Positions 2,172 to 31,213 of a DNA stretch of 64,000 bases are shown here, in pieces. Made by a program: the position numbers and the translations under genes. Within the stretch, counting starts at the first letter, position 1. Every line of letters starts with the position of its first letter. The stretch is taken from contig NZ_JAFEWC010000004.1 in assembly GCF_017355875.1 (NCBI RefSeq), positions 12,989 through 76,988 of the forward strand, in the 5' to 3' direction. Source of the DNA: Aridibaculum aurantiacum. GTDB taxonomy: Bacteria > Bacteroidota > Bacteroidia > Chitinophagales > Chitinophagaceae. Under the pieces are notes generated by a model. That model saw only the letters and a program-made list of their open reading frames with translations, did no database searches and was not told where the DNA came from.

Positions 2172-2228
2172 ATCTGATAATTTATTAGCTGGTCGGCTGC
2201 CTTTGTTGGGGCAGCCAACCGTTTACTA

Positions 2229-3050: not shown

Positions 3051-3070
3051 AATTATGATTATTTAGAAGA

Positions 3071-4675: not shown

Positions 4676-4693
4676 TTCAATCGTTGTTTTGAA

Positions 4694-7600: not shown

Positions 7601-7717
7601 AGGAGCTCCACCGGCATCGGTTACGCGTCCTGTAACTACTTTGTCTTGCGCAATTACTTGTCCTGTAAAAAGGAGCAAGGGCAAGACCATAGCAAAGAGC
7701 AGTCGTTTAAAGGTCAT
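4694..7717 (-). CDS. susC: SusC/RagA-family TonB-dependent outer-membrane receptor
   Basis: 1007 aa with a signal peptide. It has an N-terminal carboxypeptidase-regulatory-like region and a plug domain with the VVVVGYGTQRRRDVTGAV TonB-linked signature. The C-terminal beta-barrel ends in an aromatic residue (…LNF). Confidence 0.9.
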   Translation of the reverse strand: MTFKRLLFAMVLPLLLFTGQVIAQDKVVTGRVTDAGGAPVANASVVMKGGTTGTSTAADGSFSLKVPARATSIVISSVNFTTQEVAIVDGPINVVLAGATAALNEVVVVGYGTQRRRDVTGAVATVTEKDFQKGNIVSAEQLIAGKVAGVQISPSSGAPGAGSQIRIRGGASLNASNDPLIVIDGVPVDNGGVAGSANPLNMINPNDIETFTVLKDPSAAAIYGSRASNGVILITTKKGKRGRVVYNVNAQAFAQTPARKVDVLSADQLRSIVNSKGAPGDAAKLGTANTDWQDEIFRTSFGQDLNISASGAIADGKLPFRISGGMLNQDGILRTSNFNRQTLAINLSPRFLKDQLRVDINLKGARTGNRFADEGAIGSAIAFDPTQPVRTNSNRFGGYFEYLETIGIGQVPRDLAPRNPVSLLEMRENRSEVFRSIGNVQFDYSLPFVRGLRANLNLGYDVQSGEGTDVASDSAGAFYRRYEIGRNRAGTADSVLHYGGMRNRYKSQQRNLLLDFYLNYTRDLTSINSRLELMAGHGYQDFRFTNFNYPDFRFNGSIRPESTPQFPMNQPQFTLISYYGRLNYTLANKYVVTLSARTDGTSKFSQDNRWGFFPAAAFAWRINEESFLKNSNTVSDLKLRVGYGVTGQQGGIDFYGYIPRYTLSNNTAQYQLGNTFYPMLRPQAYDPNLKWETTENVNVALDFGFFKNRINGSVDVFSRKTRDLLSVVPIALGTNFSNELLTNVGSIESRGVEVTINTVPIQRKDFTWDANFNFTYIDPKISQLLLNPDPSFRGNRFGGIQGGTGNTVLIHSIGYLPSSFYVLKQVYDASGRPIEGLYEDLNRDGVINDDDRYQYKSVQPRYLLGFSSSLTYKKWAAGFVARGSFDNYVYNNVHSNLGTQRAIFNPLGWMNNGSTSFLTTNFVGADPNLYVSDYFVQNASFLRMDNINVSYDAGEVFRGSRLRVSANVQNAFVITRYSGIDPEINGGIDNQFYPRPRTFTLGFNLNF

Positions 7718-7890: not shown

Positions 7891-10779
7891 TTAATTTATA
7901 ACCTGGAACTGTTGAACCTTCATTTTGCCATTCACTTCAATCTTTAACAAGTACATTCCTGTGGCAAGTCGCGAAGGATTGAAACCATTAGAATTAATTG
8001 GTAATTTTTGAGTTCCTCTTGCTTTAAAACCTGTGTATAGTGTAGCCAGTTGCTGGCCTGTCATATTCAATACAGACACCGTCACATTTCCACTTTCAGG
8101 CAGATCGTAATCTATAACCGCGAACTTGTTTACCGGGTTTGGATATATAGACATACGCATGTTGAGCGCTGTGGCAGCAACATTTCGCACTGGTGTGGTA
8201 ACAAGATTATTTACATCCCTGTTCAGGTATACAGCATATTCTCCAGGCTGCAGTGTGATGCTTTCTGTACCACCTGTCGCGTTGCGCGTACCACCGCCTG
8301 TATAGTTGTACCAAATACCAGGGCTCTGGAAAGTGATATTACCAGTAGCCGGCACTACATCAAAATTGCCTATGACGGTAACGCGTAACGAGTCAGAATT
8401 CACCTGCAACCACTTAAAGGCTCCGGCTAAGTTGTATGAAACATTATTGGTAACCCAGGTAGGAAGGAAGTTGGGAATATTGCGCAAACGCAGCATGCGT
8501 GCATAATGATCGTGTAATGCTTTGCGATTTGGATTGCCTAGATAATCCCAGCGAATAGGCTTCGGATCTGTACGGCAATTATCATTCACGGTTCCGTTCT
8601 GGCAATAGTTGATAGAAAAATCGTAACCAAGTTCACCAAACTGCCACATCATTTTTGGCGCAGGTATCATTGACCAGAAACTGGTAGTTAGCTCGTTTCT
8701 TTTAAGTGCTACATTCAGGTCGCGTACATTATGAGCAGGGTTGTTGGTATTACCAAAGTTCAGGTTTCTATACATTAGCCTTTCTTCATCATGGCTTTCC
8801 TGGTAAGTGATCAGGTGAGGCCGCGTCCAGTTCCTGGCAGTATGAATGCCCCATTGGAAATTTGACTGAGCCAAATGCCCCATGGCAGCTTCGCTGAAGT
8901 TGTGGTTCAGGTTGCCCCACAGCAGCATGCCATAATTAGCCAGTTCTGTTTCTTCTGAGTTATCTGCAAAGTGTTCCAGTATGCAATAAGAATTAGCGGA
9001 CGTTGCCATCATTTTATCGTAAATGCGTTTCCAGATGGCAATACGGCTGGCATCGTAGTTGCCCCACTGCGCTACATTACTACCAGAGTTTACCTGTGTA
9101 AACCCTTTAGAAAGATCCCATCTGAAACCATCGATCTTATAGTTGGTTAGCCAATGCTCCACCACGCGGTCTACCAATGTCCTTGTTGCCTGGCTTTCAT
9201 GGTTGAAATCAAAACCAACATTGAAAGGGTGACGCGCTTCTTCATTGTGCCATGGGTTATCGGCAGACGGACGATTGAGTGCTGCATTCCAATACATCTG
9301 CACAGTTGGTGACATACCAAAAGCATGGTTCAATGCTATATCCATCACCACTGCTATGCCTTCTTTATGGCACTCATCAATAAACTGGCGCAATGCTGTT
9401 TCTGTACCATAAATTTTATCAGGGGCAAAAAAGTAAGAAGGATTGTATCCCCAGCTGATGTTGCCTTCAAACTCGTTGAACGGCATAATGTTGATGGTGT
9501 TGATGCCCAAACGCTTCAAATAGCCAAGCGTATCGCGTAAGGTATTCCAGTTTTGTGTGGCCACAAAATCACGCACCAGCAGTTCGTAAATAATCAGGTT
9601 TCTTTTATCAGGCCTGGCAAAATTTTGTACCTGCCAGTTGAATGTAGGCTTTGCTGTCTGCAGCACACTCACCACACCCGACTGACCAGCAGGGTAAGGT
9701 TTCAAATTTGGATAGCTGGCAGCCGGGATGTATTGGTCATTCCATGGATCCAATACTTTTTCAGCATACATATCTGCCACCTTCAATGTGCCATCAATCA
9801 AAAACTGGTAAGCATATTCTCTTGCAGGTGTAAGACCAGTAATCCTTACCCAGAAACGATTTCCATCAGGCGTTTTCTTCATCTGGTGCTGTACAGTTGG
9901 CGCCCAGTTATTGAACTCGCCAATAACAGCAACCGAATTTTTACCCGGGGCAAAAAGCACCAACGTAACAGAAGTATCGCCACTCTCGTAGTTGATACCA
10001 TTGCGTACACCAGCAGGTAGTGGTTCCACTACAGTGGTCGGTGTTACAAAAAAGGTAACGGTATCTCTTTTTACTGTAGTACCCACTGTCGCTTCTGCTA
10101 TCACGGTTTGGGTACCGGTAGTGGTGATGGTAACATTTGCTGAGACAGTGGTAGCATTTGCTGCATTTGCCACCTCGGTTCCATTAAATAGTAATTTCAG
10201 TTGTGCAGCATCGCTCGAAGCGCCAGAAATTGTAAGTGAATTTCCAATGACAAGGTTCAAAGGCTCTGCAATAGGATTGAACGTAGGCTGACGGAAAGGC
10301 TGCGTCACTCTCACCTGCAGGTTGTTATCATAAACCGGGATGTACATATCCGTTCCATCACGATTTCTTTGCGCCTTGGCTCCAGTTCCGCTTCTAAACA
10401 GGATCACGATCTTTTGGATCACCTCGTTCTGGTTGGTAACGCCAAAAAAGCTGCGTAGTCCACCTGTAATGGTAAACCTCCACTTGTTAGGCGACACATA
10501 AGTAGCCTGCGCTGCCGGTGTTGCCTGTCCCCATGTGAACTTAGAGTACTTCCAGTCGGTAGGGCTGGTGCTCAGGTTGGTGATCAGACCAATATGTACA
10601 TAAACATCAGAAGTAGGTGTATGATCTTTTAATCCCTGGTTGCCAAAGTTGGCGTCCATGGAGATCTCAATTGTAGAAGAAGATTCTCTTACAAAAACAG
10701 GATTGGTAGAGAGGAGCTGTCCCTGGCAGATCACTGCATAGAACAGGAAAAACAGTGTAGAAAATAGTTTCATACGCAC
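7891..10779 (-). CDS. GH13 alpha-amylase (SusG-like) with a C-terminal T9SS type A sorting domain
   Basis: GH13 catalytic motifs are present: VVMDIALNHAFG, GFRWDLSKGF, YQESHDEERL. The C-terminal ~90 aa (MSIYPNPVNKFAVIDYDL…LLKIEVNGKMKVQQFQVIN) match the Por/T9SS secretion-system C-terminal sorting domain. Confidence 0.85.
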   Translation of the reverse strand: MRMKLFSTLFFLFYAVICQGQLLSTNPVFVRESSSTIEISMDANFGNQGLKDHTPTSDVYVHIGLITNLSTSPTDWKYSKFTWGQATPAAQATYVSPNKWRFTITGGLRSFFGVTNQNEVIQKIVILFRSGTGAKAQRNRDGTDMYIPVYDNNLQVRVTQPFRQPTFNPIAEPLNLVIGNSLTISGASSDAAQLKLLFNGTEVANAANATTVSANVTITTTGTQTVIAEATVGTTVKRDTVTFFVTPTTVVEPLPAGVRNGINYESGDTSVTLVLFAPGKNSVAVIGEFNNWAPTVQHQMKKTPDGNRFWVRITGLTPAREYAYQFLIDGTLKVADMYAEKVLDPWNDQYIPAASYPNLKPYPAGQSGVVSVLQTAKPTFNWQVQNFARPDKRNLIIYELLVRDFVATQNWNTLRDTLGYLKRLGINTINIMPFNEFEGNISWGYNPSYFFAPDKIYGTETALRQFIDECHKEGIAVVMDIALNHAFGMSPTVQMYWNAALNRPSADNPWHNEEARHPFNVGFDFNHESQATRTLVDRVVEHWLTNYKIDGFRWDLSKGFTQVNSGSNVAQWGNYDASRIAIWKRIYDKMMATSANSYCILEHFADNSEETELANYGMLLWGNLNHNFSEAAMGHLAQSNFQWGIHTARNWTRPHLITYQESHDEERLMYRNLNFGNTNNPAHNVRDLNVALKRNELTTSFWSMIPAPKMMWQFGELGYDFSINYCQNGTVNDNCRTDPKPIRWDYLGNPNRKALHDHYARMLRLRNIPNFLPTWVTNNVSYNLAGAFKWLQVNSDSLRVTVIGNFDVVPATGNITFQSPGIWYNYTGGGTRNATGGTESITLQPGEYAVYLNRDVNNLVTTPVRNVAATALNMRMSIYPNPVNKFAVIDYDLPESGNVTVSVLNMTGQQLATLYTGFKARGTQKLPINSNGFNPSRLATGMYLLKIEVNGKMKVQQFQVIN

Positions 10780-18928: not shown

Positions 18929-20995
18929 TTATTGATTAAAAAGTCCAATTCGTGAATTATTAAGTGTTCCGATCACCGCTGCACGATCCAGGTATTTGTT
19001 CATTTTTTCGCAGCTTGTTTCGGGTAGCAGCACACAGGAATAGCAGGCTGCAAGGTTAAGCCCCATAAAGCCCTGCCCCTGTTCTGCTGATATGCAAAGC
19101 GGATCAGAGGAGCACCAGCGCGCTTTATCGACACCTTTGTTCATCACTGATGAAAGATAATCCGGCTGTCCTTTTTCAACCAATCCGCCTAGGGATCCCT
19201 CAGCGTCGGAAGTCGTGGTATAAATAAGGATACCGTTCATCTCTTCTTCAGTCCCGATTGAAGAGTTGCCACTACAGTAGATAATTTCTGCGAGGGATGA
19301 AAGACTGTATCCGCAGTCCTCTGCCAGCTCTTTTAGCAGTATATGGGAAAGTGTATGCAGGAATAAGTACCGTTTATTGATTAACTCATGATTCTGGTTG
19401 AAACTGAGGTTCGCCTGTTCTAAGTTGTGGTTTATCGTATCGAGACGTGCATTCGGATACTCATCTGCCCACGCATTGAGCTTTTTATTACTGAACTTAA
19501 GAAAAATTCCTTCTCCTTTCACTTCAACTGCGGGCAATTCCCTTGTATGCAAGGGGTCTCTGCGTGCATCCTGTATACGCTCAAATTCGTGTTTCTGCTT
19601 CGTATCTAAATTATCCGCAGCTTCTGCAAAAACTAGTTCTTCACCCATCAATGGTTTCACCCGCGTGAACCCCTTATAGACCTTCAGTGCGGAGAGTTTT
19701 TCAAGTAGTACTACTTCCTCCAACAGATCGGGCTGACCTGTGAGGCTGTTGTATTCATTACCATCAACTTTCTTCTTTTTGAACCATACTGTCTTATCCT
19801 TTATCACTGTCCCTGTAAAAGCGCTGAATTCCTGTTGACGAAGCAATACAGCTTTGTTGATAAAGCGCTCTTCGGGCTTTTCACCAAAATGATTCCGGAT
19901 AAAACCGATGACTGCTTCCTTGGTATAGCCAAGTTTCAGCAACTGGTGATTCGGATTGCTTTCGACAAGTCTGATCAGGAAATCGCGCCATTGCTCGTTT
20001 GTATAGTCCTGATATATATCCGGCATACTGTCCCTGAAAATTGTGACCGTTGAGTCCAGATTTTGCTGCACTTCCGGAGGGCATTGCTGCTCATAGGCTG
20101 ACTGTGGCAGGAGGATACCGCTGTAAATAATGGGGAAAATAATATTGCCGGCGCCCCTTTGCATTGTCCTGGGAAACTTGCGCTTTGCAGCCGGTGATAA
20201 ATCATCACCGTCCATGATGTTTCCCTGCCTTGGAACGTCACTGACGAGCTCTGTTACATAGCTCTCATTGTTATGCCATCCTTTCCATGGTTTTGGCAGG
20301 TAATTGTTTACATAATCCAGATAATTTCCTTCTGCATCTGTTTCAGTGAAAATTGACTGGTCAAATATCTGACCGAGATCTCTGCTGGCTAAAAAAGTAT
20401 TGCTTCCTCTCCGGTAACTCTCAATTGTAATATCGCTCAGACCTGCTGATCCTCCCTTTGATTTATAATAAAGCAGATGTCTCTGGCCCCTTTCTTTAGG
20501 ACAGCTTTTGTGAACAAACCAGTCCCAAGGAAAATCACCCAGAAAACCCTCTTCTGTCGCAATCACAAAGCGCATTGGCACCAGATTGGGGCCGATACCC
20601 GTCTGATTATTAGTGCAGGCATCACAAGTAAAAGCTCGCATCTTCTGATCGAAAGAGCCCCGTTCAATTATTGCCTGCCCTCTCGTCTTTGTAATAAAAT
20701 GAATCAGCCCACACTTTGGACAATACTGCGCTCCGGGAAACCGTATTCCATAGGCGGATAGATTATTAATGCCATCCTCCTGTGGGGGAACCACAAAATG
20801 ATCGACCTTAAATGCTTCTGCCAGGCGACTGTCTCTAATCACCTGTTTTTTATTCGGGTCTTCCTGATTTACATTTCCCCAGTCGCCGTAGCCATCATCA
20901 TGGCACAGCATGATCAGTGAAAGCTCCGGAAAATCAATCATTGAGCCGGACGGCCATGTATGTATAATTTGTGACTGTCTGATATCGTAACTCAT
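18929..20995 (-). CDS. DUF1998-domain protein (DrmB/MrfB-like) with an N-terminal zinc ribbon
   Basis: 688 aa. The C-terminal cysteine signature AACYSCVLLPETSCEKMNKYLDRAAV, preceded by TTTSDAEGSLGGLVE, is typical of DUF1998. A second Cys cluster is CPKCG…CDAC. The start lies 3 bp after the helicase stop. Confidence 0.65.
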   Translation of the reverse strand: MSYDIRQSQIIHTWPSGSMIDFPELSLIMLCHDDGYGDWGNVNQEDPNKKQVIRDSRLAEAFKVDHFVVPPQEDGINNLSAYGIRFPGAQYCPKCGLIHFITKTRGQAIIERGSFDQKMRAFTCDACTNNQTGIGPNLVPMRFVIATEEGFLGDFPWDWFVHKSCPKERGQRHLLYYKSKGGSAGLSDITIESYRRGSNTFLASRDLGQIFDQSIFTETDAEGNYLDYVNNYLPKPWKGWHNNESYVTELVSDVPRQGNIMDGDDLSPAAKRKFPRTMQRGAGNIIFPIIYSGILLPQSAYEQQCPPEVQQNLDSTVTIFRDSMPDIYQDYTNEQWRDFLIRLVESNPNHQLLKLGYTKEAVIGFIRNHFGEKPEERFINKAVLLRQQEFSAFTGTVIKDKTVWFKKKKVDGNEYNSLTGQPDLLEEVVLLEKLSALKVYKGFTRVKPLMGEELVFAEAADNLDTKQKHEFERIQDARRDPLHTRELPAVEVKGEGIFLKFSNKKLNAWADEYPNARLDTINHNLEQANLSFNQNHELINKRYLFLHTLSHILLKELAEDCGYSLSSLAEIIYCSGNSSIGTEEEMNGILIYTTTSDAEGSLGGLVEKGQPDYLSSVMNKGVDKARWCSSDPLCISAEQGQGFMGLNLAACYSCVLLPETSCEKMNKYLDRAAVIGTLNNSRIGLFNQ

Positions 20996-20998
20996 AAG

Positions 20999-23900
20999 TT
21001 AAATGCTTTTAATCCTTACTTTGGAAGAAGATTCGACATTTCTCAATGTCTGCATTGTCGGAATGTGGTCCTGCAGCAGGCTTTCAACAAATTGTGCCGG
21101 AGCATTGTAAACAGCATTCGGATTTCTGATTTTAGTTACAACCTGTTCTATGTTGGGGTCATAACGCATATAATCCGTATAGACTGCTAGCCTCCGGTCA
21201 CCATCGAGCATTGAGAGCCGTGTAGTGAACTCCTGCTGAATAGAATCAATTGTATCACATATCTCAGTTGCGTCAGCCGCTCCATAAATGGCAATTGCTT
21301 TGGCTTTGACATCCTGTATAACGCCGTCAACAAATGTCCTGTAAGCTGTATCTGCGGGACTGAATACACCGTGGCTTCCGGTAAGAAACAAACTGCGGGT
21401 CAGGGTAATCAGCACTGTAGGCAGGACCTTTTCGAGTGCCGGCCGGGAGAATGGTGTAACGGAGCTTGCTTCAACATGATAGTAATAAGCCTGATGGAAT
21501 GCCTTGAATTGTTCATAATGTGAACGGTCCCTGTTTTTAGTGGGTGCAAGAAAAGTGAAAACCACACCAGGGCCTTCCCTTCCTACCCTTGAGCTGGCCT
21601 GAATATATTCTGCAGTAGTTTTGGGCTGACCGTTTACAATCATGGTGTTCAGCCTGGGAATATCAACGCCCACTGAAATCATGTTTGTCGCCGGTGCAAT
21701 CTGCACCGGATCGGGATGTCCCCCCATAAGATTGTTTACAGCATTGATAAACGATTTATAATCCTTTTCACTGTCACCTGAAAAAGCAAGATCGATCTGA
21801 TCGAAAAAAGGCTTGTTTAAAAATCCTGACCAGACAGAACCTTTTGCTGTTTTAATATCTCCATTTGTCCGGATACCCGTTGCGAAAAGTTTCTGAACCA
21901 GCAAATTATTTTCATCAAGCCCGGCAGGAAGTGTTGTCTTTTCCAGTCTGTCAAGACCTTTGTTAATGTCATCTGCCGTCATGACACTGGACAATTCACA
22001 AAGGGCATTCTGGTTGAACGGTTTGAAAAACGTGCTGAAATGATTAGCCAGCATTTTCCTGTAAGCGACAATGTCATCGGTAAGAAAGGTCCTGAACTTT
22101 CCCAATTCTTTTAATGCATTGAAATACACAACCAGTGTGTAATACCGATCCAGCTCTCCATTTGCTGCGGGCAGTACAGGTATTCTTTCAAGCAGGACTG
22201 AGGCCAGCCGGATCAGGGCTGTGCTGGTAGTCACACCCGATGGCATGAATCCAACATAGAGCCTGTTCTTTGGATCGTCTACCTTGATTTTCTTTGCGTA
22301 AAACGAATCGTCTGCATCGGTAGCCGGAGGAGGAAACTGAAGAAAATGCTTCCTGCCGTACAAACGCCTGCATTGTTCTTCCGCATTCCGAACGGTTGCC
22401 GTAGCGCCAACGACTTTGCAGATATTTCCCTCAGCTTCCCGGCAAAGTCTGTCGATTACAATCTCATATACCCCATATATCGTTCCCAAGGCAGAACTGA
22501 TCAGATGTAGTTCATCTTGAATGATCAGTTCCGGGGAAGGATAGAGCCGTTTTACCTGATTATTGCTGAACTCTGTATTGAACAGATTGAAGGCATCACT
22601 CCTCCAAGCAAGCTGAACAAATTTATCGACAGTGGAGAACAGCAGTGACGGACGTTCCTGGTAAATTGTTTCATCCACTTCATAAACAGGAAATGTTTTA
22701 TCAGGGTTTTTCCGGAAGTCAGCAGCAGTCACATAGAAGGCACAACGGGTATTTGTGCAGGCCATGTGATAACGTCCTGTTTCACTCCCTCTGTTATTTA
22801 CCGTCCTGAAATAACCCCATCGTCCGATTACCTGATTGTTTTCAATTTCACGGACAAGACGGTTGCCGCAACACGGACAGGACAGCAGCGGAGGTGAACT
22901 TTTGTAAGTACTTGGTTGTCTGCCTCTGTTTACCTGCCTTATATAATCAGCATAGTCCCTCTGCTGATCCTCCTCATTGTTTGGTGTCATGGATCTACCC
23001 ATCCAAATACCGTTTGATATTCTGACTTTCCCATATGCAGCCGGTTCCATCCGCCGGATAAGATCACAGGAACAGATCAGAATTGTTGCCCGCTCAAATT
23101 GTTGTTTGTTAAGAAGTCTCAATGTATACCGCATGAGGACAGAGACACCTGCTCCTTGGTCAGGGTCATTATATGATTTTCTAGCTTTCAAACGCCTGAA
23201 GAAAATAGTGAATGCTGTAAGACCTAAATAAGCTTCAGTCTTACCACCGCCTGTGGGAAACCAGATAAGGTCGACAGTATCACGGTCCGGTGAGGACGGG
23301 TCTGTAATCCCTTGGACCTGGGAAAGTAAGAAGGCGAGCTGAAACGGGCGCCAGCGTGCTAGTGTCCCCGTTTTTTCATAGTTGATTAAATCGATATGGA
23401 GTTCTCCTTCTTGCCATATTTTTCCAGCACCGGCATCAAATGGAATTTTGGTGTAATCGGGCAGGCCGTCATCTGTACCTGCGTTATTTTTCTGTACGCG
23501 TCCTGCCACCCTTCTGTGTCTGCTGAAATCTGCCATTACCCGCTGCATAAACATAGCCCTGTTGGCATCTTCAAAGGCTTTCCGTGCTTCGCTGTCTGCA
23601 GCTAGCAACTCAATCCCTTTCTTCATCCTTTCATAAAGCTTCTCACATTTTTTAAGGTTTTTTACGGCCTGTTCTTTAAGTTTCGGTTCCAGCCCATTGT
23701 TCTTGATTTGCTCTCCCTGATCGACTATCCACTGTTTATATAAATCGATAAACACTTCCAGCTCACTTTTTACCGTTGTCCAGTCATATGACATTTCAAG
23801 CGCAGTTCCGCTCAGTCTCTTTATATACAAAATATTGCTCCCCTTGAATACGTCCGGATTCAGATCCACACCATTCACTTTTTCCTGTGGAAGTACCTGT

Positions 23901-24793
23901 GTAAACACCTTCTGAACCTGGTCGTTTTCTTCATCCCAGTCCACCGATATGCCGTGTCCTTGTGCATAAACTTTGTAATTTCGGTAAAGCAATTTGAGAT
24001 TAAGATCTTCTTCTGACAGAATATTTAAGTCGGTCCGGTCATCAAAAGCTTTGAAACCGTTTGTCGTTTGCACCGTTAGAGATGGCTGAAACAGACAATC
24101 GTCTGCACTTTTCTGGTGACCCGATGATTTTGCTTCCTTCTTATTGATCAGCGTGAAGGTTTTTATTTCGAGGGCTTCCTGACCATATTTATGCGGGTAG
24201 TTCCTTGTTGCAATCGTCAGAATTGCATTCTCATTAAGATTTACATTGATCAGATTTCCATTCTTTGAATAATTAAGGTCGCCAAAATCAAAGGTGTCAC
24301 CTTTAATTTTAAGAGTAAATTCGTGCGGAACATGTTTATATACATTTACGCTGACCATTGTTACTGCTTCCCCCTTTACAACTTCTTTTTCAGCTTTTTT
24401 CTTCACATATACAGCAAAGCGGATATTGATTTCAAGTGAAGCATTTTTTGCAGTAAGAACAGATATCCCTGCAGCAGACGGACGGAACTTAGTGGTCAGC
24501 TCCAGCTCTCCGCTTTTATCTGTAGTATCCGCCTCCTGAGATGCTCTTACTTTCTGTGTTGTTGACTTTTCTTCACCGGAAGTATTTTCGCCTGCATTTT
24601 CCTGCTGCATCTGTGCTCCTGTGCCCACACTGTTGTCGTCCTGCTCCTCGTATTCTTTGGTAAGTGGGAGTTGAGGAAACAATACGCCGACAGAATAGAA
24701 ATCAAGTGGGTTCTTCTCCAGCTGTTCGCCACTACCGTTTATTGGTCCGTGCAGAATTCTCGCAACTTCTGCAACAATAGTTTCTCTGAGCAT
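20999..24793 (-). CDS. SF2 DExH-box helicase with an inserted zinc ribbon (DrmA-like partner of DUF1998)
   Basis: 1264 aa. Motif I WFPTGGGKTEAYLGL, motif II IIQDELHLIS, motif III VGATATV, motif VI QASSRVGR. A CPCCGN…CTNTRC zinc ribbon sits between motifs Ia and II. A ~450-aa N-terminal domain has unknown function. A helicase immediately upstream of DUF1998 is the DrmA/DrmB (and MrfA/MrfB) arrangement. Confidence 0.6.
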   Translation of the reverse strand: MLRETIVAEVARILHGPINGSGEQLEKNPLDFYSVGVLFPQLPLTKEYEEQDDNSVGTGAQMQQENAGENTSGEEKSTTQKVRASQEADTTDKSGELELTTKFRPSAAGISVLTAKNASLEINIRFAVYVKKKAEKEVVKGEAVTMVSVNVYKHVPHEFTLKIKGDTFDFGDLNYSKNGNLINVNLNENAILTIATRNYPHKYGQEALEIKTFTLINKKEAKSSGHQKSADDCLFQPSLTVQTTNGFKAFDDRTDLNILSEEDLNLKLLYRNYKVYAQGHGISVDWDEENDQVQKVFTQVLPQEKVNGVDLNPDVFKGSNILYIKRLSGTALEMSYDWTTVKSELEVFIDLYKQWIVDQGEQIKNNGLEPKLKEQAVKNLKKCEKLYERMKKGIELLAADSEARKAFEDANRAMFMQRVMADFSRHRRVAGRVQKNNAGTDDGLPDYTKIPFDAGAGKIWQEGELHIDLINYEKTGTLARWRPFQLAFLLSQVQGITDPSSPDRDTVDLIWFPTGGGKTEAYLGLTAFTIFFRRLKARKSYNDPDQGAGVSVLMRYTLRLLNKQQFERATILICSCDLIRRMEPAAYGKVRISNGIWMGRSMTPNNEEDQQRDYADYIRQVNRGRQPSTYKSSPPLLSCPCCGNRLVREIENNQVIGRWGYFRTVNNRGSETGRYHMACTNTRCAFYVTAADFRKNPDKTFPVYEVDETIYQERPSLLFSTVDKFVQLAWRSDAFNLFNTEFSNNQVKRLYPSPELIIQDELHLISSALGTIYGVYEIVIDRLCREAEGNICKVVGATATVRNAEEQCRRLYGRKHFLQFPPPATDADDSFYAKKIKVDDPKNRLYVGFMPSGVTTSTALIRLASVLLERIPVLPAANGELDRYYTLVVYFNALKELGKFRTFLTDDIVAYRKMLANHFSTFFKPFNQNALCELSSVMTADDINKGLDRLEKTTLPAGLDENNLLVQKLFATGIRTNGDIKTAKGSVWSGFLNKPFFDQIDLAFSGDSEKDYKSFINAVNNLMGGHPDPVQIAPATNMISVGVDIPRLNTMIVNGQPKTTAEYIQASSRVGREGPGVVFTFLAPTKNRDRSHYEQFKAFHQAYYYHVEASSVTPFSRPALEKVLPTVLITLTRSLFLTGSHGVFSPADTAYRTFVDGVIQDVKAKAIAIYGAADATEICDTIDSIQQEFTTRLSMLDGDRRLAVYTDYMRYDPNIEQVVTKIRNPNAVYNAPAQFVESLLQDHIPTMQTLRNVESSSKVRIKSI

Positions 24794-24802
24794 AAAATTG
24801 AT

Positions 24803-26545
24803 TTAGTTTGAATTGGCGATACGATTCGCGATAACAGAATGATACCGGCTGTTGATAAAAAAAATGCTTTGCGCTGTAGCCCGTGTATTGGCAATATAGA
24901 TCAGTGACATCTGCTTTTTGTCATTCGGATTATAATCTTCCGGACTGCAGATAAGGATAAATCTGTTTTCCAGTCCCTTGTAGGCATGAATGGTTGACAC
25001 AATTACTTTACCGGAAACCGGAAAAGCACTTTCAACATACCGGCCCGGATTGGATTGTACAAGAGATATAAGCTGCTCTCTTTCCGAACAAAGAATTGTT
25101 ACATCTTTTCGTTCAACTCCTTCAGCTTCCAGTTTTATGATTGTCTCACTGACCCTGTTTTTCAGATCAGTATCAGAAGAATAAAACTTTATTTCACTGT
25201 TCCAGGTTTGATCCGTGCGAAGACAGGGCATTTCAGGGAAACCGGTTTGCAGTGAGGCCCTTTTGATTGTGGAAAGCGTATTCCTGCAGTTCAATTGAAG
25301 CAGACTGACAAAGCAGGGATACACATCACGCAAGTACTCAAAATATTCATCTGCATCATTGTTGTAAATGTTCTGGTACTCTTTGTCCATAAAAATTGCC
25401 CAGTTACCTGATTCTAGGCCGCCTTTCAACAGAAGTCCCAGTGCTTCGAAATGATATTCATTCAATATATCCTGCCCCTCATCTATGATCAGGTAATCGA
25501 ACGACCGCTTTTTAGTTTCTGCCAAGTTCCGAACAAACTGAAGCGGCAAATCACGGGACCAGTATTCCTCATTGCTGCTGATGTCACCCGGCGGGTTTTG
25601 AAGAAAATCCCTGTCCCTGTATAAACTATGAAGGTGACAGATAAAATAATTTCCTTCAGTCACAAGGTTACGGCCTTGCTGAGTAAGGTATTCCGCCAGA
25701 TTTTTATTAAAACAGATTAACAGGGTGCGCCTGCCATCTGTAAGTGCCCTTTTGAAAAGCTCCAGCGCGAGGAGTGTTTTGCCGGTTCCTGGGCCTCCCA
25801 TAATCACGCCTCCCTTTCCCGGATTGTATTTCAGGTTATCCAGAATATACATCTGCATTCCTGTGAGGCGCTGTGCTTCCTCGCTTCCTTTTTTCAAAAG
25901 ATCAGAAACGGGCAACCGGAAATGAAGATCCTGCCGGAAGTAACGGCTGACGGTACTTAGTTCTTTCTGACTTAGACCTGATCTTCCAGCATATTGCGGA
26001 TGAGCGGACCAGTATCGTTTAACTTTCTGAAGAAAACCGATTAGACCCCCTTTCTTATGATCACTGTAATCATAAATCAATTCCGGATCAAATTCCATTT
26101 GCCCCATTGTTGATTTTCTGAACTCATCGGGTTTAATGGTGTCAGGGAACAAGACACCGATACCATATACCAGCCGTCCCGGGATGGATTTGCCCCGGAA
26201 CAAATCCGGCAGCAGTGTGTCTCTCGTATAAAATAAAGTGTTGTACGCCTGCCTGAAAGGATCACCCGGCTCTGTACCTCCCTGAACATACCACTGATTT
26301 TTGAGCGAGTCGAATTTTACTGATCCGCCTTTTACTTCCAGAAAAAGGATGCATTCGCTGTCCATGTACACAAAGTCTATCTCTCCTTTGATCTTCTTAT
26401 CCCCTGTTTTTGCCATGTTCAGAGAATGAAAAAGATATTTTTCGGTGTTATTAAAATAAGTGCTGTTTGCGGCCACCACATAAATCTCTTTTTCAGCCTG
26501 TGAGTTGAATTCATATCCGTTCAATGAAGAGGGACTAAGGGGCAT
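24803..26545 (-). CDS. NERD-domain nuclease fused to a UvrD-like SF1 helicase/ATPase (Nhi-like architecture)
   Basis: 580 aa. The N-terminal ~110 aa have a NERD-like (nuclease-related domain) pattern (EIDFVYMDSECILFLEVKGG). Walker A is GGPGTGKTLLALE and Walker B is LIIDEGQD. A UvrD C-terminal motif V-like TIHAYKGLENRFILI is present. Confidence 0.6.
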   Translation of the reverse strand: MPLSPSSLNGYEFNSQAEKEIYVVAANSTYFNNTEKYLFHSLNMAKTGDKKIKGEIDFVYMDSECILFLEVKGGSVKFDSLKNQWYVQGGTEPGDPFRQAYNTLFYTRDTLLPDLFRGKSIPGRLVYGIGVLFPDTIKPDEFRKSTMGQMEFDPELIYDYSDHKKGGLIGFLQKVKRYWSAHPQYAGRSGLSQKELSTVSRYFRQDLHFRLPVSDLLKKGSEEAQRLTGMQMYILDNLKYNPGKGGVIMGGPGTGKTLLALELFKRALTDGRRTLLICFNKNLAEYLTQQGRNLVTEGNYFICHLHSLYRDRDFLQNPPGDISSNEEYWSRDLPLQFVRNLAETKKRSFDYLIIDEGQDILNEYHFEALGLLLKGGLESGNWAIFMDKEYQNIYNNDADEYFEYLRDVYPCFVSLLQLNCRNTLSTIKRASLQTGFPEMPCLRTDQTWNSEIKFYSSDTDLKNRVSETIIKLEAEGVERKDVTILCSEREQLISLVQSNPGRYVESAFPVSGKVIVSTIHAYKGLENRFILICSPEDYNPNDKKQMSLIYIANTRATAQSIFFINSRYHSVIANRIANSN

Positions 26546-26547
26546 GA

Positions 26548-29139
26548 TTATATTTTATAAATTGTCGAAATTCTTTTTATCTCAATATGATTGATAAAAT
26601 CATTTAACAGGTTGTCCGTATAAACCTCATCTTCTTGGAACCTGATACCATAAAGCCGTGCGATAAGTCTACGGATTGCGGTTCTTACAAAGCCTGCCTG
26701 AATGGATTTAAGATCAGCGTTGTGTTTATTGAAAGAACCGATTTCATCATTGTTGATAATGCCAAGTTTACCCAGTGCATGCAGCAAACTCACAAAATTA
26801 TCCGGGCGTTGCGTGTCACCATCGATCCAGTTTTTCACTGTTGCAGGACCAATTTTAAATCCGTTGTCCAGCAGTTTTTTGCAGAAGAAATTCAGGTCCA
26901 TCCGGCACCGGACGATATGATTTTTCAGCAGGAGCCTCCATTTTTTATCCATCTCAATTGCCAGAGAAAACGCAGGGTCTTTTCTTAAGGCCTGCTCCAG
27001 CAGGTCTTTGACCTGAAGACCACGTCTGGCTACAATAATCTGATCACCCGCGCTCAAGGTCGTTACGGACCTAAAAGACGCTTCATAATCAAAATCTTCC
27101 TTATCATCTTCATACACATAGAAATGTCTTGACTCCGGCACCTGACTAAGTGTCCTGTCATCAAACAAAAGAATGTATTTTTCAGATAGTTCTTTTGCAT
27201 TAGAACCTTCATATTGCTGAACAATCTTTTGAACCACTTCCTGCAGGTCAATGTCCTGAACTTCTGATACATTTTGGACAATTTCCGGTTCTAACTTCGG
27301 CACATTAAACTCAACCTCAATGAGACCAGAGGCTATATTATCCGGAGACGAGGATGGCGGCTGGAGATTAAGCAAAGTATACTTCACACGGTCACAACCT
27401 ACTTCTTTTTGTATGTCCTGATATTTACCAAATAGGTTTTTTGCAAAATAGCAGCTTCTTTCATTTAATATAAATAACTGATTTGCTGCTAACACATTGC
27501 CAATTGCCGCACCAATTGTTTTTCTATCACTGGTCAAATAAAATATATATGAAGAAGGAACTTCATTTTTCTGATTAAATGTGTGGAATTCTTTTTTATG
27601 GATATGTAGGATTTTGATGTTAGGGAGGGTCTCTCCCAAAGTATTTACAAGCCACTTCGCATCTTCAATGCTGCTGTTGTCCGATACTATTTCAATTGTT
27701 CCTTGTAAAGTTCTGCTGTTTAGCTCCTGTAAAATAATTGGTAGTTTGAAGTTGACAAAACGAGAATTATTCAAAATGTATTGTTCCAAATACCATTTTA
27801 TGTCTTCTATTAGACCATAATCTTGTCCGCCAGAAAACCAGTTCTGCCGAAGTTCCTCTAAACTGGATAAAAAATCGGTTGAAAATTCCTGCAGAGCTTT
27901 AGGATCGAAAAAAGAATTTAGTTTAGTACGTAGATTGTAAAGACAACTGAGGGGTCGTATTATTTCACCATTACAAAAGCTTTCTTGAGCTATGTTTTTC
28001 AATCTTAAAATCAGGTCCCAAAGTTTCTTATTTAAATTTTCAAACTCAGGATCTCCTGTAGATGTGACAATTACTTTTGGTGGATTAGCTACTTTCTTTT
28101 CATCAAGATCTAATTGCTCCAATGGCTGCAAGAGCCATGGATTGTATTCTATTTTTAATTCATTAAAATAAGTATGAATATCCAGGTTGCTGATCCGGGA
28201 AATTAAGTACATATCCTTGATCTGTTTGTCCCGCACCATTTGAAGATATCCTTCATTTAGGTTTTGTAGTTCTTGCAAAAGGCTTTGTGACCTTTCCCAA
28301 CTGTATATAAAAGAATCGAAATCATCTAAGATTATAGTTTTGACATGATTAAATCGACCTTTACCTGCCTCTATGATTGATTTATAAGCGCGAAACGAAT
28401 CCTGACGTGCAACAATCAGAGAAACTGGAGCATTCTCAGTATTAGGCCCAGAAAGACGCTGAAACCGTAACTCTGCATCGTTGGCAGGAAAAATGACTTT
28501 TTGAATGTTTAAATGTCTTCTTAGATCAGTCCCTGCAACTTTTACGTTTTTAAGAAGACTCTCGAATTTGCTTATATTGGTAAACAAAACAACTGCCTCA
28601 AAATTATCTTGGGGAAGTATTGGAAGAGTAAAAATATTTTGTTCAACTGCTTGATCTAAATCTGCAAATTTCTCAATCTTATCTCTTAAAAAATTTGAAT
28701 TAGACAACCAGTTTAGTTTGTATGTTTCGTCAAATGGAATTGATTTATCACCACCAGTCCCTGCTTGAATAATTAAACTGCGATCTATAAAATTAACTTG
28801 CCTTACATCATATATAGTTCCATTTAAAACGACTTGTTTACAGTTTGGTCCGTATGCTAAATTTCCAAAGTCATGCCTTTTCATTGAAAGGGACAATGCT
28901 TTCCTGTACTGACCCATTATTACAAAGAATGGGACTAAATTTATCGTAGTGGTACTGTTTGACGGATAAAGGCCTATAATTCGGTGGTTCCGATCGACAG
29001 TATTTTGATGGATTAAAAATGGAAGAAGTTGGCTTGCAGTAAAGTCAGACACAATGCAACCATTGATTTCATATTGAAGATTTCTTAAATCTGGGCATTC
29101 GCATGATATGGAATGCTGTATATAAGCCTTGTTAAGCAT
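26548..29139 (-). CDS. Hypothetical 863-aa protein (possible DrmE-like component), strongly AT-rich gene
   Basis: Long uninterrupted ORF, first gene of the tightly spaced block (2-bp gap to the next gene). No recognisable catalytic motif by eye. Composition is visibly AT-richer than the flanking housekeeping genes. Confidence 0.6.
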   Translation of the reverse strand: MLNKAYIQHSISCECPDLRNLQYEINGCIVSDFTASQLLPFLIHQNTVDRNHRIIGLYPSNSTTTINLVPFFVIMGQYRKALSLSMKRHDFGNLAYGPNCKQVVLNGTIYDVRQVNFIDRSLIIQAGTGGDKSIPFDETYKLNWLSNSNFLRDKIEKFADLDQAVEQNIFTLPILPQDNFEAVVLFTNISKFESLLKNVKVAGTDLRRHLNIQKVIFPANDAELRFQRLSGPNTENAPVSLIVARQDSFRAYKSIIEAGKGRFNHVKTIILDDFDSFIYSWERSQSLLQELQNLNEGYLQMVRDKQIKDMYLISRISNLDIHTYFNELKIEYNPWLLQPLEQLDLDEKKVANPPKVIVTSTGDPEFENLNKKLWDLILRLKNIAQESFCNGEIIRPLSCLYNLRTKLNSFFDPKALQEFSTDFLSSLEELRQNWFSGGQDYGLIEDIKWYLEQYILNNSRFVNFKLPIILQELNSRTLQGTIEIVSDNSSIEDAKWLVNTLGETLPNIKILHIHKKEFHTFNQKNEVPSSYIFYLTSDRKTIGAAIGNVLAANQLFILNERSCYFAKNLFGKYQDIQKEVGCDRVKYTLLNLQPPSSSPDNIASGLIEVEFNVPKLEPEIVQNVSEVQDIDLQEVVQKIVQQYEGSNAKELSEKYILLFDDRTLSQVPESRHFYVYEDDKEDFDYEASFRSVTTLSAGDQIIVARRGLQVKDLLEQALRKDPAFSLAIEMDKKWRLLLKNHIVRCRMDLNFFCKKLLDNGFKIGPATVKNWIDGDTQRPDNFVSLLHALGKLGIINNDEIGSFNKHNADLKSIQAGFVRTAIRRLIARLYGIRFQEDEVYTDNLLNDFINHIEIKRISTIYKI

Positions 29140-29250
29140 GTCAGGTTAATATTAAAACCGGACAACATTGGGGGATGTTAGTCTTGGTTAGCTAAGCAGG
29201 TTAATTGCAAGTTGAATGTACAACTTCATTAATTAACTACTACAGTTAAC

Positions 29251-30516
29251 CTACAAAATCTTCATTATTGATTTCGCAATTGCATAAGCCATTAATGGCG
29301 GCACTGCGTTTCCTATCTGCTTGAATGCGGCAGTTCTATTAAAAGATAGTTTTCTTTTAATATCACTTGGCTTCACTCCTTCAAAATAATAATCATCCGG
29401 GAACGATTGAAGCCTGGCTGCTTCTCTAACTGTCAATGAACGGATTTGCTTGATATCAGGATGAATATAATAATGACCGTCTTTCGCTATATGGGCAACA
29501 ACTGTCTGTGAATAAGGCAGGTCATCGGCAACTACTTTGAAACGATCAAAAAAAGAAGTCCTATTGTTATGGGTTTTAAGTTCATCAGGTAGATCATTAT
29601 AATTTAATCTCTCCCCGCTCCTTTTCCACTTCTTTATAGCGATACGATATATTTTTTTGTCTTGTTGGTTATGTGGACGGGAGATATGTTGGGTCAGTAC
29701 GTCTATGCCATTTCTGATGCAATTGTTTATTAAATATTGATTTGTATCACCTGCGTAAGCCTGATATTTATCTATTCCAGCTCCTGCCAATAAAACTGGT
29801 AAATCAACTAATACATCAGCTACGGTGGATTTGGTTTGGTGTTTTACTTCTTCGAGATTTGGTATCTCAAGATTTAAATCTTTCTTCCATCCAATAATAA
29901 TTACTCTCCTTCTTCTTTGTAATACACCAAAATTGTTTGCTTCAACAGTAAACAGTTTCATCTTATAACCTCGATCTAAAAACAGCTTCTCCATCTGTTC
30001 AAGATAAAATCCTCTTTTGGCTGACTTCAACCCAAGAACATTTTCAAATACAAACATTTTAGGTTTATAAAAAGCTAGATAGTTGGCGTATTCTACAAAT
30101 AAATAGTTTCGAGGATCACCCTCCATCTTTGTTGCAGATCTGGATCTACCAGCCAGTGAGTAAGCCTGACATGGAGGTCCACCTATAATTAAATCTACTT
30201 TTTGCTTGCCGAGGAGGCTCTTTATTGTTTTATGAATGGTCTCATTATGCTCAGGCCCAACTGGCAGATTAATTATTGAAGACTTTACTTCATCAGGGAT
30301 TTCTTTATACAATTTTTCTCGACTTATCTCTCCCCTTAAATAGGATACATAGATGCTGTACTGATTGTTTGCCTTCAAGTAATGGTAGGCAGTTCTGGTT
30401 CTTAAGGAATAGCAAGCAGCTTTATCCATTTCAACGTGTGCAATAGGGGTAAATCCTGCCCGGATGAAGCCCTCGGATAATCCACCGGCACCTGCAAATA
30501 AGTCTATGAAGTTCAT
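29251..30516 (-). CDS. dcm: DNA (cytosine-5)-methyltransferase
   Basis: 421 aa. Motif I FAGAGG, motif IV GGPPCQAYSLAGR, motif VI FVFENVLGL, motif X QIGNAVPP. Confidence 0.9.
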   Translation of the reverse strand: MNFIDLFAGAGGLSEGFIRAGFTPIAHVEMDKAACYSLRTRTAYHYLKANNQYSIYVSYLRGEISREKLYKEIPDEVKSSIINLPVGPEHNETIHKTIKSLLGKQKVDLIIGGPPCQAYSLAGRSRSATKMEGDPRNYLFVEYANYLAFYKPKMFVFENVLGLKSAKRGFYLEQMEKLFLDRGYKMKLFTVEANNFGVLQRRRRVIIIGWKKDLNLEIPNLEEVKHQTKSTVADVLVDLPVLLAGAGIDKYQAYAGDTNQYLINNCIRNGIDVLTQHISRPHNQQDKKIYRIAIKKWKRSGERLNYNDLPDELKTHNNRTSFFDRFKVVADDLPYSQTVVAHIAKDGHYYIHPDIKQIRSLTVREAARLQSFPDDYYFEGVKPSDIKRKLSFNRTAAFKQIGNAVPPLMAYAIAKSIMKIL

Positions 30517-30941
30517 TTCCTGGAAGATACAATTTTGCCAGGCAATTTAGCAAGAGTTTTTTGAAGTTTCCCTGCTTTTGTCTCACACTCCCAGACTGTG
30601 AGTACTTTCCATCCAGCATCTTGAAGAGCTTTTTTGTTTCTCTTGTCTCTTCTGACGGTATCCGAAAACTTCTTTTTCCAATTTGTACTAGATTCTTGTG
30701 ATGGAGTCGTGCAATACCTGCAGCCTGGATGCCGATGAAAATAACACCCATGTATGTCAACTACCGTTTTATACTTCGGCAAAACAATATCAGGCTTACC
30801 CGGCAGATCCTTGACATGAAGCCGGTAACGGAAGCCGTGCTTGTGCAGAAAGCGACGCACCAGCATCTCGGGCTTTGTATCCTTGCCCCTGATTGCAGCC
30901 ATATTTTTACTGCGTGTTGCTTTATCATGCACATCTGCCAT
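30513..30941 (-). CDS. vsr: Very-short-patch-repair endonuclease
   Basis: Vsr signature MADVHDKATRSKNMAAIRGKDTKPE…VDIHGCYFHRHPGCRY…VWECE. The stop overlaps the dcm start in ATGA. The supplied ORF extends to 31049 (178 aa), but the conserved Vsr N-terminus begins at the Met at 30941. Confidence 0.8.
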   Translation of the reverse strand: MADVHDKATRSKNMAAIRGKDTKPEMLVRRFLHKHGFRYRLHVKDLPGKPDIVLPKYKTVVDIHGCYFHRHPGCRYCTTPSQESSTNWKKKFSDTVRRDKRNKKALQDAGWKVLTVWECETKAGKLQKTLAKLPGKIVSSRK

Positions 30942-31175
30942 ATACCAAAGCTCCAGTTCAATCATCTCGCCAAAGTCTCTGCCAGCACCTTTAACACCGT
31001 ACAAGTTGCGACCCCGCCTTCGCCAATGCTTCGGTCGGGGCAGGCGCAATCGCGGCCAAATAATATTATAGGGCTGGTCCCATAATAATTCCTTCCCAAG
31101 TAAGCGGCGGCGTGGTAACCATGTGATGGATGATTGGTGGCGAGATCCAACACCTATTCACGCAGCACCCACCCA

Positions 31176-31213
31176 TACAAAAAACAAAAGGAGCAGTTGC
31201 CTGCTCCTTTCCT
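31176..31213 (-). terminator. Rho-independent terminator of the flotillin operon
   Basis: GGAGCAG-gcaact-CTGCTCC hairpin followed on the minus strand by TTTTGTTTTTTG, directly 3' of the flotillin stop at 31214. Confidence 0.6.

Follow-up and report, generated by a model that had tools for sequence, protein, structure and literature searches.

The DrmA-DrmB complex belonging to the class 1 DISARM system in Serratia sp. SCBI, solved as 7S9V and 7S9W (Bravo et al. 2022, PMC9142583), is encoded by separate genes for the helicase DrmA and its OB-CON-DUF1998 partner DrmB. Residues 176-232 of Serratia DrmA form a trigger loop, which occludes the site for single-stranded DNA (ssDNA) and is displaced by DNA with a 5'-overhang (PMC9142583), and Serratia DrmB holds further metal sites besides the four cysteines of DUF1998 (Bravo et al., PMC9142583). 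Bell et al. (10.1101/2025.09.15.676423) give the order of parts in class 1 DrmA as an EVE-like domain, the trigger loop, a jelly-roll domain, a strand of the N-terminal region and a helical domain; in their account RecA1 of DISARM DrmA contains two embedded zinc-binding modules and DrmB one more, and the EVE-like N-terminal domain, possibly a reader of modified bases, is stated to be a class 1 feature. The definitions of the classes are used here as restated in later papers (10.1101/2021.12.28.474362, PMC9252829), from whose accounts the class 2 system of Bacillus paralicheniformis has the order drmE-drmA-drmB-drmC-drmMII; drmA, drmB and drmE are reported essential in the characterised class 2 system, as far as Ofir 2018 is related there, and drmC is reported dispensable for defence in the systems tested. 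Here we describe a helicase gene and the DUF1998 gene that follows it in a 64-kb stretch of DNA from Aridibaculum aurantiacum (Bacteroidota; NZ_JAFEWC010000004.1, positions 12,989-76,988), called the window throughout. With high confidence the pair is read as DrmA and DrmB, the canonical motor of a DISARM system of the DrmE/DrmMII type ('class 2', with a short DrmA).

A first-pass annotation of this DNA had pointed to two adjacent reading frames as a DISARM helicase core, and both the frames (Table 1) and the assignment were borne out. The larger protein was matched by DrmA models of PADLOC (E 6.1e-192), one of which, with 1282 positions, covers it from residue 2, and by the NCBIfam model DISARM_DrmAS (NF038325; E 6.3e-252) over residues 3-738, from model position 2. 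The short-form model DrmAS scored 839 bits and the long-form DrmAL 580. Searches of the structure database with the single sequences of DrmA and DrmB found the Serratia DrmAB entries alone (7s9v_A at 2.8e-118 and 7s9v_B at 5.5e-54). A profile of 33 DrmA homologues, the set to which all counts of invariant DrmA residues refer, matched 7s9v_A with an E of 2.4e-252, its positions 4-726 running along Serratia residues 133-821 in one unbroken stretch that spans the N-terminal region or 'chassis', the equivalent of the trigger loop, the cysteine ribbon and RecA1. An AlphaFold2 (AF2) model of the monomer, comprising residues 1-1200 of 1264 and ending ahead of the C-terminal 64 residues, the arm expected to wrap the N-terminus of DrmB, reached a mean predicted local distance difference test score (pLDDT) of 82 and a predicted template modelling score (pTM) of 0.79. 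Compared by Foldseek, it matched 7s9w_A (E 6e-59; 1273 columns) with template modelling (TM) scores of 0.69/0.68, against about 0.25-0.26 for the runner-up folds, Brr2 and MrfA (6znp). The helicase motifs quoted by the annotation, GGGKT, DELH, ATAT (aa 797-800) and QASSRVGR, are all present and the ATPase motifs intact; motif Ia, RYTLRLL, lies at about residue 555. The homology, the integrity of the motifs, the match of fold and the conservation of gene order are demonstrated, and as judged from the sequence the protein is unambiguously a homologue of DISARM DrmA in spite of a score below the family cut-off.

About 480 residues precede RecA1 in DrmA. In the AF2 model they are laid out as a confident helix with strands (residues 1-45), a disordered segment (46-100), a beta-rich part (107-306) and a helical part (338-429), after which RecA1 begins; residues G36, P40, P105, Y129, G279, G281, W286, C383, N411 and R418 are among those of the chassis that are invariant. 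This region, described at first as some 450 residues of no recognisable family, does look so in Pfam, because Pfam sees only Helicase_C (PF00271; 1.3e-6, above the gathering score) and a sub-threshold DEAD match in the whole protein. The description fails for the DrmA models of PADLOC and NCBIfam, whose matches start at residue 2-3. The profile pairs residues 1-45 with Serratia 133-175, the disordered segment with Serratia 176-232 and the PSSxGIS after it with PSSLGMT at Serratia 233. The loop between the conserved P40 and P105 has 39-76 residues and a net charge of -5 to -24 in 33/33 homologues. Segment 46-100 is a predicted equivalent of the DrmA trigger loop, to which autoinhibition would be ascribed by analogy, and an acidic loop in all 33 of these short-form proteins suggests that the autoinhibition of class 1 extends to class 2-type systems. 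The sole real N-terminal difference concerns Serratia residues 1-132, which have no counterpart in the A. aurantiacum protein; on the alignment, this is a difference between classes already in the literature and no peculiarity of the present DrmA.

The cysteines placed by the annotation between motifs Ia and II were found there, as CPCC (aa 639-642) and CTNTRC (aa 679-684). The signature had been written CPCC…C, and although the cluster itself stands, the third cysteine of CPCC does not belong to it as a conserved member: C641 is a tryptophan in 15/33 homologues and in Serratia DrmA, where SCPWCG is aligned to SCPCCG both by the single sequence and by the profile. Since the conserved set consists of C639, C642, C679 and C684, these are the likely ligands and the ribbon is better described as CxxC…Cx4C. 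Judged on conservation, the ribbon and the finger of DrmB are family traits rather than innovations, and metal binding by them is predicted. More cysteines of DrmA are invariant or close to it, namely C383 (33/33), C576 and C808 (32/33 each), C574 (30/33) and C784 (27/33), encoded within about 22370-23645 of the window on the minus strand; they might constitute the second zinc-binding module of RecA1 known from the literature.

The partner was recognised as DrmB by PADLOC (6.2e-61), by NCBIfam DrmB_fam (cut-off 240, passed with 346.5 bits) and by Pfam MZB (PF09369; 2.7e-7). A profile of 20 DrmB sequences aligned with 7s9v_B end to end, the N-terminal finger included (5-624 to 11-617; E 9.2e-136). 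Both cysteine modules that had been attributed to the protein are present. In the N-terminal CxxC…CxxC finger (C92/95, C124/127), where YCPKCGL is aligned to RCVKCGL of 7s9v_B, C92 is invariant and C95 at least 90% conserved among the 20 sequences; the C-terminal DUF1998 cysteines are spaced C-x5-C-x16-C-x2-C and have their Serratia counterpart in C559/565/581/584. At the junction of the two genes, TAA-CTT-ATG, stop and start are separated by a 3-nt gap and do not overlap. Of the translational coupling proposed for them, the tight adjacency is therefore confirmed and a direct overlap is not, coupling across such a gap being plausible.

The likeness to the Serratia complex extends to the order of parts, DrmA consisting in both of an N-terminal segment, an acidic disordered loop, a beta domain, a helical domain, a RecA1 that bears a CxxC…C ribbon, and RecA2, and DrmB having the four-cysteine DUF1998 cluster with an N-terminal metal site, which is predicted for A. 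aurantiacum. The disordered loop thus stands ahead of the beta domain as in the solved structure, and the cysteine modules of RecA1 and DrmB are aligned with it and conserved. The differences are an identity of about 27%, some 55 additional residues of DrmA (aa 953-1024) between parts that align near Serratia 1063 and 1083, a DrmB of 688 residues instead of 619, and the absence from the present operon of DrmD (SNF2), DrmMI (N6-adenine methyltransferase) and DrmC. The pair adds a DrmAB of Bacteroidota to a family with a solved structure, in which ribbon, finger and N-terminus are shared traits.

The annotation had raised a further possibility, that the N-terminus, ribbon and finger of this DrmAB-like pair are divergent and could stand for a different trigger. 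Such a reading could draw on the blank left by Pfam over the first ~500 residues of DrmA, on a single-sequence search in which 215-424 were the only N-terminal residues aligned with 7s9v_A, and on the lack of the first ~132 Serratia residues, where class 1 has its EVE-like domain (10.1101/2025.09.15.676423). It is nonetheless improbable, as the profile alignment proceeds without a break from residue 4 (Serratia 133) through the loop and the PSSxGIS strand to Serratia 821, the DrmAS and PADLOC models start at residue 2-3, the whole chain superposes with a TM of 0.69, ribbon and finger are aligned and conserved with the solved structure, DrmB aligns over its whole length and the missing N-terminus is a known class-level difference. 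N-terminus and ribbon map confidently onto DrmA, which is the outcome that the annotation itself had set as the end of its proposal. A pair belonging to some other system of the YprA family (MrfAB-type DNA repair, Dpd, Druantia or ARMADA) is hardly credible. All of these share an SF2 (superfamily 2) helicase associated with DUF1998, and MrfA/YprA (6ZNP), with its SF2 RecA core and DUF1998 zinc cluster, is among the fold matches; but MrfA is one polypeptide acting in DNA repair, has neither an N-terminal chassis nor a trigger loop, and reaches a TM of 0.26 against 0.69 for DrmA, while the division of helicase and DUF1998 between two genes is a hallmark of DISARM. The PADLOC matches below 1e-5 are all to DrmA or DrmB and none to Dru or Dpd (BrxHI, at 0.0026, is the sole other), genes for the methyltransferase DrmMII and for a DrmE-like protein lie next to the pair, and no 7-deazaguanine cluster, fused C-terminal nuclease, PglX or BrxHII was found among the Pfam-scanned reading frames of the window. 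The two-gene split, the PADLOC matches, the fold scores and the neighbours were the grounds for rejecting Dpd, Druantia, ARMADA and MrfAB.

The pair belongs to an island of seven minus-strand genes that occupies about 14 kb (~16.9-31.2 kb of the window) and encodes Vsr, DrmMII, a DrmE-like protein, a NERD nuclease fused to a superfamily 1 (SF1) helicase, DrmA, DrmB and an AIPR protein (Table 1). All seven reading frames are intact, and little space lies between them: drmE, the NERD-helicase gene, drmA, drmB and the AIPR gene are separated by 2, 9, 3 and 11 nt in turn, and the stop of vsr overlaps the start of drmMII by 4 nt. The locus has a drmA that contains Helicase_C, a separate adjacent drmB with DUF1998/MZB and, as in class 2, a C-5 cytosine methyltransferase gene drmMII in the operon, and the class 1 genes drmD (SNF2) and drmMI (N6-adenine methyltransferase) were not found among the Pfam-scanned reading frames of the window. 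As far as the class 2 system of B. paralicheniformis is described in the later papers, the two have in common a DrmMII 5-methylcytosine (5mC) methyltransferase, a DrmE-like gene upstream of drmA, a short DrmA and DrmB; they differ in that the present locus is without a phospholipase D (PLD) DrmC, has the NERD-SF1 gene between drmE and drmA, AIPR after drmB and Vsr before drmMII, and has a very divergent DrmE. Of the genes reported essential in that system, drmA and drmB are present and intact here, as is the DrmE-like gene in the place of drmE. The 863-residue protein is most likely, from its family matches, a divergent DrmE: NCBIfam DrmE_fam aligns with E 1.7e-9 over its residues 182-782 (model 157-741 of 838), and the Pfam match to DrmE_C, sub-threshold here (5.8e-4), is present in 10/11 members of its family. 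These features point to a DrmC-less variant of class 2 type, in a common arrangement with a NERD-helicase.

Table 1. Coordinates of the features described, in positions of the window
Feature	Position	Strand	Basis
drmA, SF2 (YprA-family) helicase, 1264 aa, 'short' class-2-type DrmA	20999..24793	-	PADLOC, NCBIfam, PDB, AF2/Foldseek
DrmA N-terminal 'chassis', aa 1-480	23354..24793	-	AF2 secondary structure/pLDDT; profile alignment to Serratia DrmA
Acidic disordered loop, aa 46-100, predicted trigger-loop equivalent	24494..24658	-	pLDDT ~30; aligned to Serratia 176-232
Walker A / motif I GGGKT, aa 515-519	23237..23251	-	invariant in 33 homologues
Putative zinc ribbon in RecA1, C639-x2-C642 … C679-x4-C684	22742..22879	-	four Cys invariant in 33/33 homologues
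Motif II DELH, aa 760-763	22505..22516	-	D760, E761, L762, H763 invariant (33 homologues)
Motif VI QASSRVGR, aa 1065-1072	21578..21601	-	Q1065, A1066, S1068, R1069, R1072 invariant (33 homologues)
drmB, OB-CON-DUF1998 (MZB) partner, 688 aa	18929..20995	-	PADLOC, NCBIfam, Pfam, PDB profile
DrmB N-terminal finger C92-x2-C95 … C124-x2-C127	20615..20722	-	alignment to 7s9v_B
DUF1998 Cys cluster C628, C634, C651, C654 (plus C662)	19010..19114	-	invariant in 20 DrmB sequences
NERD-helicase: PD-ExK nuclease joined to an SF1 helicase, 580 aa; lies between drmE and drmA	24803..26545	-	Pfam, PADLOC
Divergent drmE-like gene, 863 aa	26548..29139	-	NCBIfam DrmE_fam, Pfam DrmE_C, conserved position
drmMII, C-5 cytosine DNA methyltransferase, 421 aa	29251..30516	-	PADLOC DrmMII 7.8e-169; Pfam DNA_methylase (PF00145) 2.9e-62
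vsr, very-short-patch repair endonuclease	30513..31049	-	Pfam Vsr 4e-30; TIGR00632 129 bits, above cut-off
AIPR (AbiU1-like abortive-infection) protein, 669 aa	16908..18917	-	Pfam AIPR 2.6e-96, AIPR_N 1.1e-29
Terminator-like hairpin, 11-bp stem + T-run	31186..31211	-	consensus scan; follows upstream Band7 gene

The NERD-helicase gives Pfam matches to NERD, AAA_19, SLFN-g3_helicase and UvrD_C_2, and PADLOC matches to its NERD-helicase model (8.8e-33) and, weakly, to Nhi, AbiO and GajB; no curated NCBIfam family covers it, the best score being 27 bits. Its invariant residues include D57, E70 and K72 of the PD-ExK nuclease, Q231, G253-K256 of Walker A, D355-E356-x-Q358-D359 of Walker B (DEGQD, aa 355-359, in the protein of the window) and the arginine fingers R421 and R555. 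The AF2 model has a pLDDT of 87 and its nearest solved folds are SLFN11/14, Upf1, UvrD and Dna2. The protein resembles SLFN11/14 (Schlafen group 3) and NERD/UvrD-type defence candidates in that an N-terminal nuclease is followed by an SF1 helicase, and differs from those fusions in that this subfamily is fixed within the DISARM operon.

Neighbourhoods were compared in two samples. The close clade comprises six loci, from Spirosoma flavus, from Telluribacter sp. and from four metagenomic contigs, in which DrmA is 48-72% identical. For the distant sample 80 loci were taken from the 593 or more related ones in the genome collection, with a DrmA identity of at most 41% among the matches listed, and 64 of the 80 could be evaluated on both flanks and form the base of the NERD and PLD counts. 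Because an iterated hidden Markov model (HMM) of the NERD-helicase drifted to generic SF1 helicases, the protein was scored by a strict single-sequence criterion, in which coverage of both its NERD and helicase parts was required, and four partial or fragmented cases adjoining drmA/drmB were counted in manually. The presence or absence of DrmE in the distant loci is an unreliable character, tblastn and HMM having missed the likely DrmE of two PLD-type Bacillota loci (L035, L036). The block drmE-NERD-helicase-drmA-drmB is the same in all six loci of the close clade; Vsr and the 5mC methyltransferase, whose position and orientation vary, occur in five of them. In the distant sample a full-length NERD-helicase adjoins drmA on its upstream side or drmB on its downstream side in 26/64 loci, belonging to Bacteroidota, Actinomycetota, Pseudomonadota and Bacillota, and in some Firmicute loci the position is the one downstream of drmB. 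The related loci listed with a NERD-helicase are L001-L003, L016, L020, L023, L029, L030, L039, L040, L050, L054, L066, L081, L082 and L087-L089. A PLD gene of about 250 aa stands immediately after drmB in 16/64 loci and none of the 64 has both, with a Fisher p of 6e-5 that, uncorrected for kinship, overstates the independence of the loci. In a neighbour-joining tree the PLD loci group with the long-form DrmA, plus two Bacillota loci, and the DrmE/NERD loci fill the other half. In L085 a NERD-helicase is followed by reading frames of 431, 393 and 518 aa and then by DrmB, an arrangement that resembles a split or frameshifted DrmA.

The AIPR gene, to which Pfam AIPR and AIPR_N match over the full length, begins 11 nt past drmB. 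The slot after drmB is filled variously in the six close loci, with AIPR in two (L081, L082), unannotated genes in another two, an Mrr/AspBHI_N enzyme in one of the remaining pair and a methyltransferase in the other. An AIPR gene is joined to DISARM in several DrmA lineages, after drmB in the two loci just named and beside the methyltransferase in L015, L037 and L066, and the association is sporadic (the window and 5 of ~80 genome loci). The best reading of AIPR is a variable accessory of the post-drmB slot, an abortive-infection add-on with a presumptive effector role, which is consistent with the loose association of AbiU1/AIPR with restriction-modification (RM) systems (PMC3506569); like those genes, it adjoins a methyltransferase-based immunity system. 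It differs from MzaE of the MZA system, since it is no equivalog (360 bits, with an NCBIfam cut-off of 1050) and the other MZA genes are absent.

What the NERD-helicase does in such an operon can be read in two ways, in both of which the DrmAB pair is canonical. It is probably an accessory effector, and gene order together with the exclusivity towards PLD suggest that it most likely supplies the nuclease activity of the DrmC-less operon. A stronger form of this proposal, which we put forward tentatively, would make it an integral effector that replaces DrmC in a distinct, widespread and unnamed DISARM subtype, DrmMII(+Vsr)-DrmE-NERD-DrmA-DrmB, with AIPR as an optional abortive-infection backup. 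The other reading, a serious possibility that we would still rate somewhat below an even chance, takes the NERD-helicase and AIPR as independent defence genes embedded in a DrmC-less DISARM of four genes (DrmMII, DrmE, DrmA and DrmB). It is common for DISARM, BREX and type I RM operons to hold unrelated, co-oriented defence genes (10.1101/2024.01.29.577857); moreover about ten Firmicute loci consist of MTase-DrmE-DrmA-DrmB alone (MTase, methyltransferase), the NERD-helicase is found upstream of drmA or downstream of drmB depending on the lineage, homologues of ~30% identity stand alone outside DISARM, the post-drmB slot is variable, AbiU1/AIPR is loosely tied to RM systems and drmC is dispensable in the tested systems. 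However, throughout the 48-72% clade the NERD-helicase keeps a fixed position with gaps of 2-9 nt, it lies beside drmA/drmB in 26 of the 64 loci and in four phyla, and it never occurs together with DrmC, a pattern tighter than a random passenger predicts. A further reading, of the island as a decayed, non-functional DISARM remnant that lost drmC, would account for the absent DrmC and for a DrmA and a DrmE below their curated cut-offs. It is very unlikely, given that the seven frames are intact and packed, that all catalytic motifs are invariant, that drmC could be dispensed with in the tested systems and that the architecture is kept at 48-72% identity over several genera and many metagenomes, a conservation that implies purifying selection.

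Several observations weigh against the assignment to a class 2-type DISARM with a canonical motor, or against the part given in it to the NERD-helicase. DrmA, at 839 bits, falls short of the 950 set as equivalog cut-off for DISARM_DrmAS, as in a divergent branch, and this is probably the reason why the identical RefSeq protein of A. aurantiacum is named merely 'helicase-related protein'. The Foldseek comparison with the DrmAB structure gives large rmsd values (6.5-12.8 Å), which are to be expected when a multidomain protein is modelled in the absence of its partner. The DrmE-like protein reaches 36.6 bits with DrmE_fam, whose cut-off is 80, again as a divergent branch would, and the DrmE models of PADLOC did not match it. 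A PLD DrmC was not found in the 64 kb, no reading frame with HxKx4D occurring in or near the island; AIPR occupies the place after drmB, so that the 'core triplet' is incomplete, and the sole PLDc_2 (PF13091) match of the 64 kb is polyphosphate kinase (54762-56807). With DrmC absent and DrmE unmatched, the 'DISARM type II' rule of PADLOC (PMC9252829) would not fire. The formation of a DrmA:DrmB complex and the autoinhibition by the loop are proposed by analogy with Serratia. Lastly, the mutual exclusivity of NERD-helicase and PLD tracks the phylogeny of DrmA, and homologues of the NERD-helicase (~30% identity) are also present outside DISARM.

With the pair taken as the motor of a class 2-type DISARM, a mechanism can be proposed from what is known of Serratia. 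DrmA, with the N-terminal chassis and two RecA domains, and DrmB, as an OB-CON-DUF1998 'canopy', would form a heterodimer as they do there. The acidic trigger loop (DrmA aa 46-100) would fill the ssDNA channel and keep the complex off the host DNA until a 5' single-stranded overhang of incoming DNA pushes it out, after which the intact SF2 motor would translocate with ATP. The Cys4 ribbon and the cysteine clusters of DrmB, being family-wide, would have a structural or zinc-binding role and not that of a special sensor. DrmMII would mark self DNA by 5-methylcytosine, and Vsr would repair the ensuing T:G mismatches. DrmE would act as the partner that the one class 2 system characterised requires, the NERD(PD-ExK)-SF1 protein would supply nuclease activity in place of the absent PLD DrmC, and AIPR would be a variable abortive-infection add-on. 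If functional, the NERD-helicase would provide an alternative nuclease for DISARM, where the step that destroys DNA remains unexplained; were it an integral effector, it could account for the destruction of DNA although DrmC is dispensable. Rule-based detectors that demand DrmC would miss systems of the NERD type. No description of a DISARM operon with NERD was found in the searchable literature, to which the founding DISARM paper did not belong, and the variant may nevertheless already be in print.

The upstream edge of the island appears to be marked by the terminator-like hairpin that follows the Band7 gene, and its flanks are Bacteroidota housekeeping genes (ligA, DUF2461, Band7, the Sus locus). 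No tRNA genes were found at the borders and no integrase next to the island in the window. A promoter scan was uninformative, with 33 sites where 33.4 were expected. The G+C content of drmE and drmMII (26548-30516) is 36.5-37.4%, that of drmA and drmB 44-45% and that of the window 43.4%, a hint that the modification/DrmE half of the island has a history other than that of the DrmAB half. In the relatives the methyltransferase and Vsr module shifts around the conserved drmE-NERD-drmA-drmB block. Mobile neighbours were seen in the loci of two close relatives: in that of P0016 a tyrosine integrase lies directly upstream of Vsr-MTase-(NOV_C)-DrmE-NERD-DrmA-DrmB, and in L088 a DDE transposase flanks the DISARM genes. 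The DISARM cassette may accordingly travel on mobile islands.

Elsewhere in the window, about 23 kb from the island, two minus-strand genes are separated by ppk1 (54762-56807). One encodes a protein with a cyclase domain (53692-54765), matched by the Pycsar PycC models of PADLOC (1.7e-18), and the other an HD-domain protein fused to a PycTM effector domain (56821-58032; Pfam PycTM 6.6e-35, PADLOC PycTM 1.1e-15). From their domains, the two may form a Pycsar-like pair in which the HD-PycTM fusion is unusual. A secreted Endonuclease I (46715-48175, minus strand) and an alpha-amylase (7891-10779, minus strand), the latter beside a SusC/D/E/F starch-utilisation locus (414-7717), both carry a type IX secretion C-terminal sorting domain; endonuclease, amylase and Sus locus are ordinary features of Bacteroidota, unrelated to the DISARM island.

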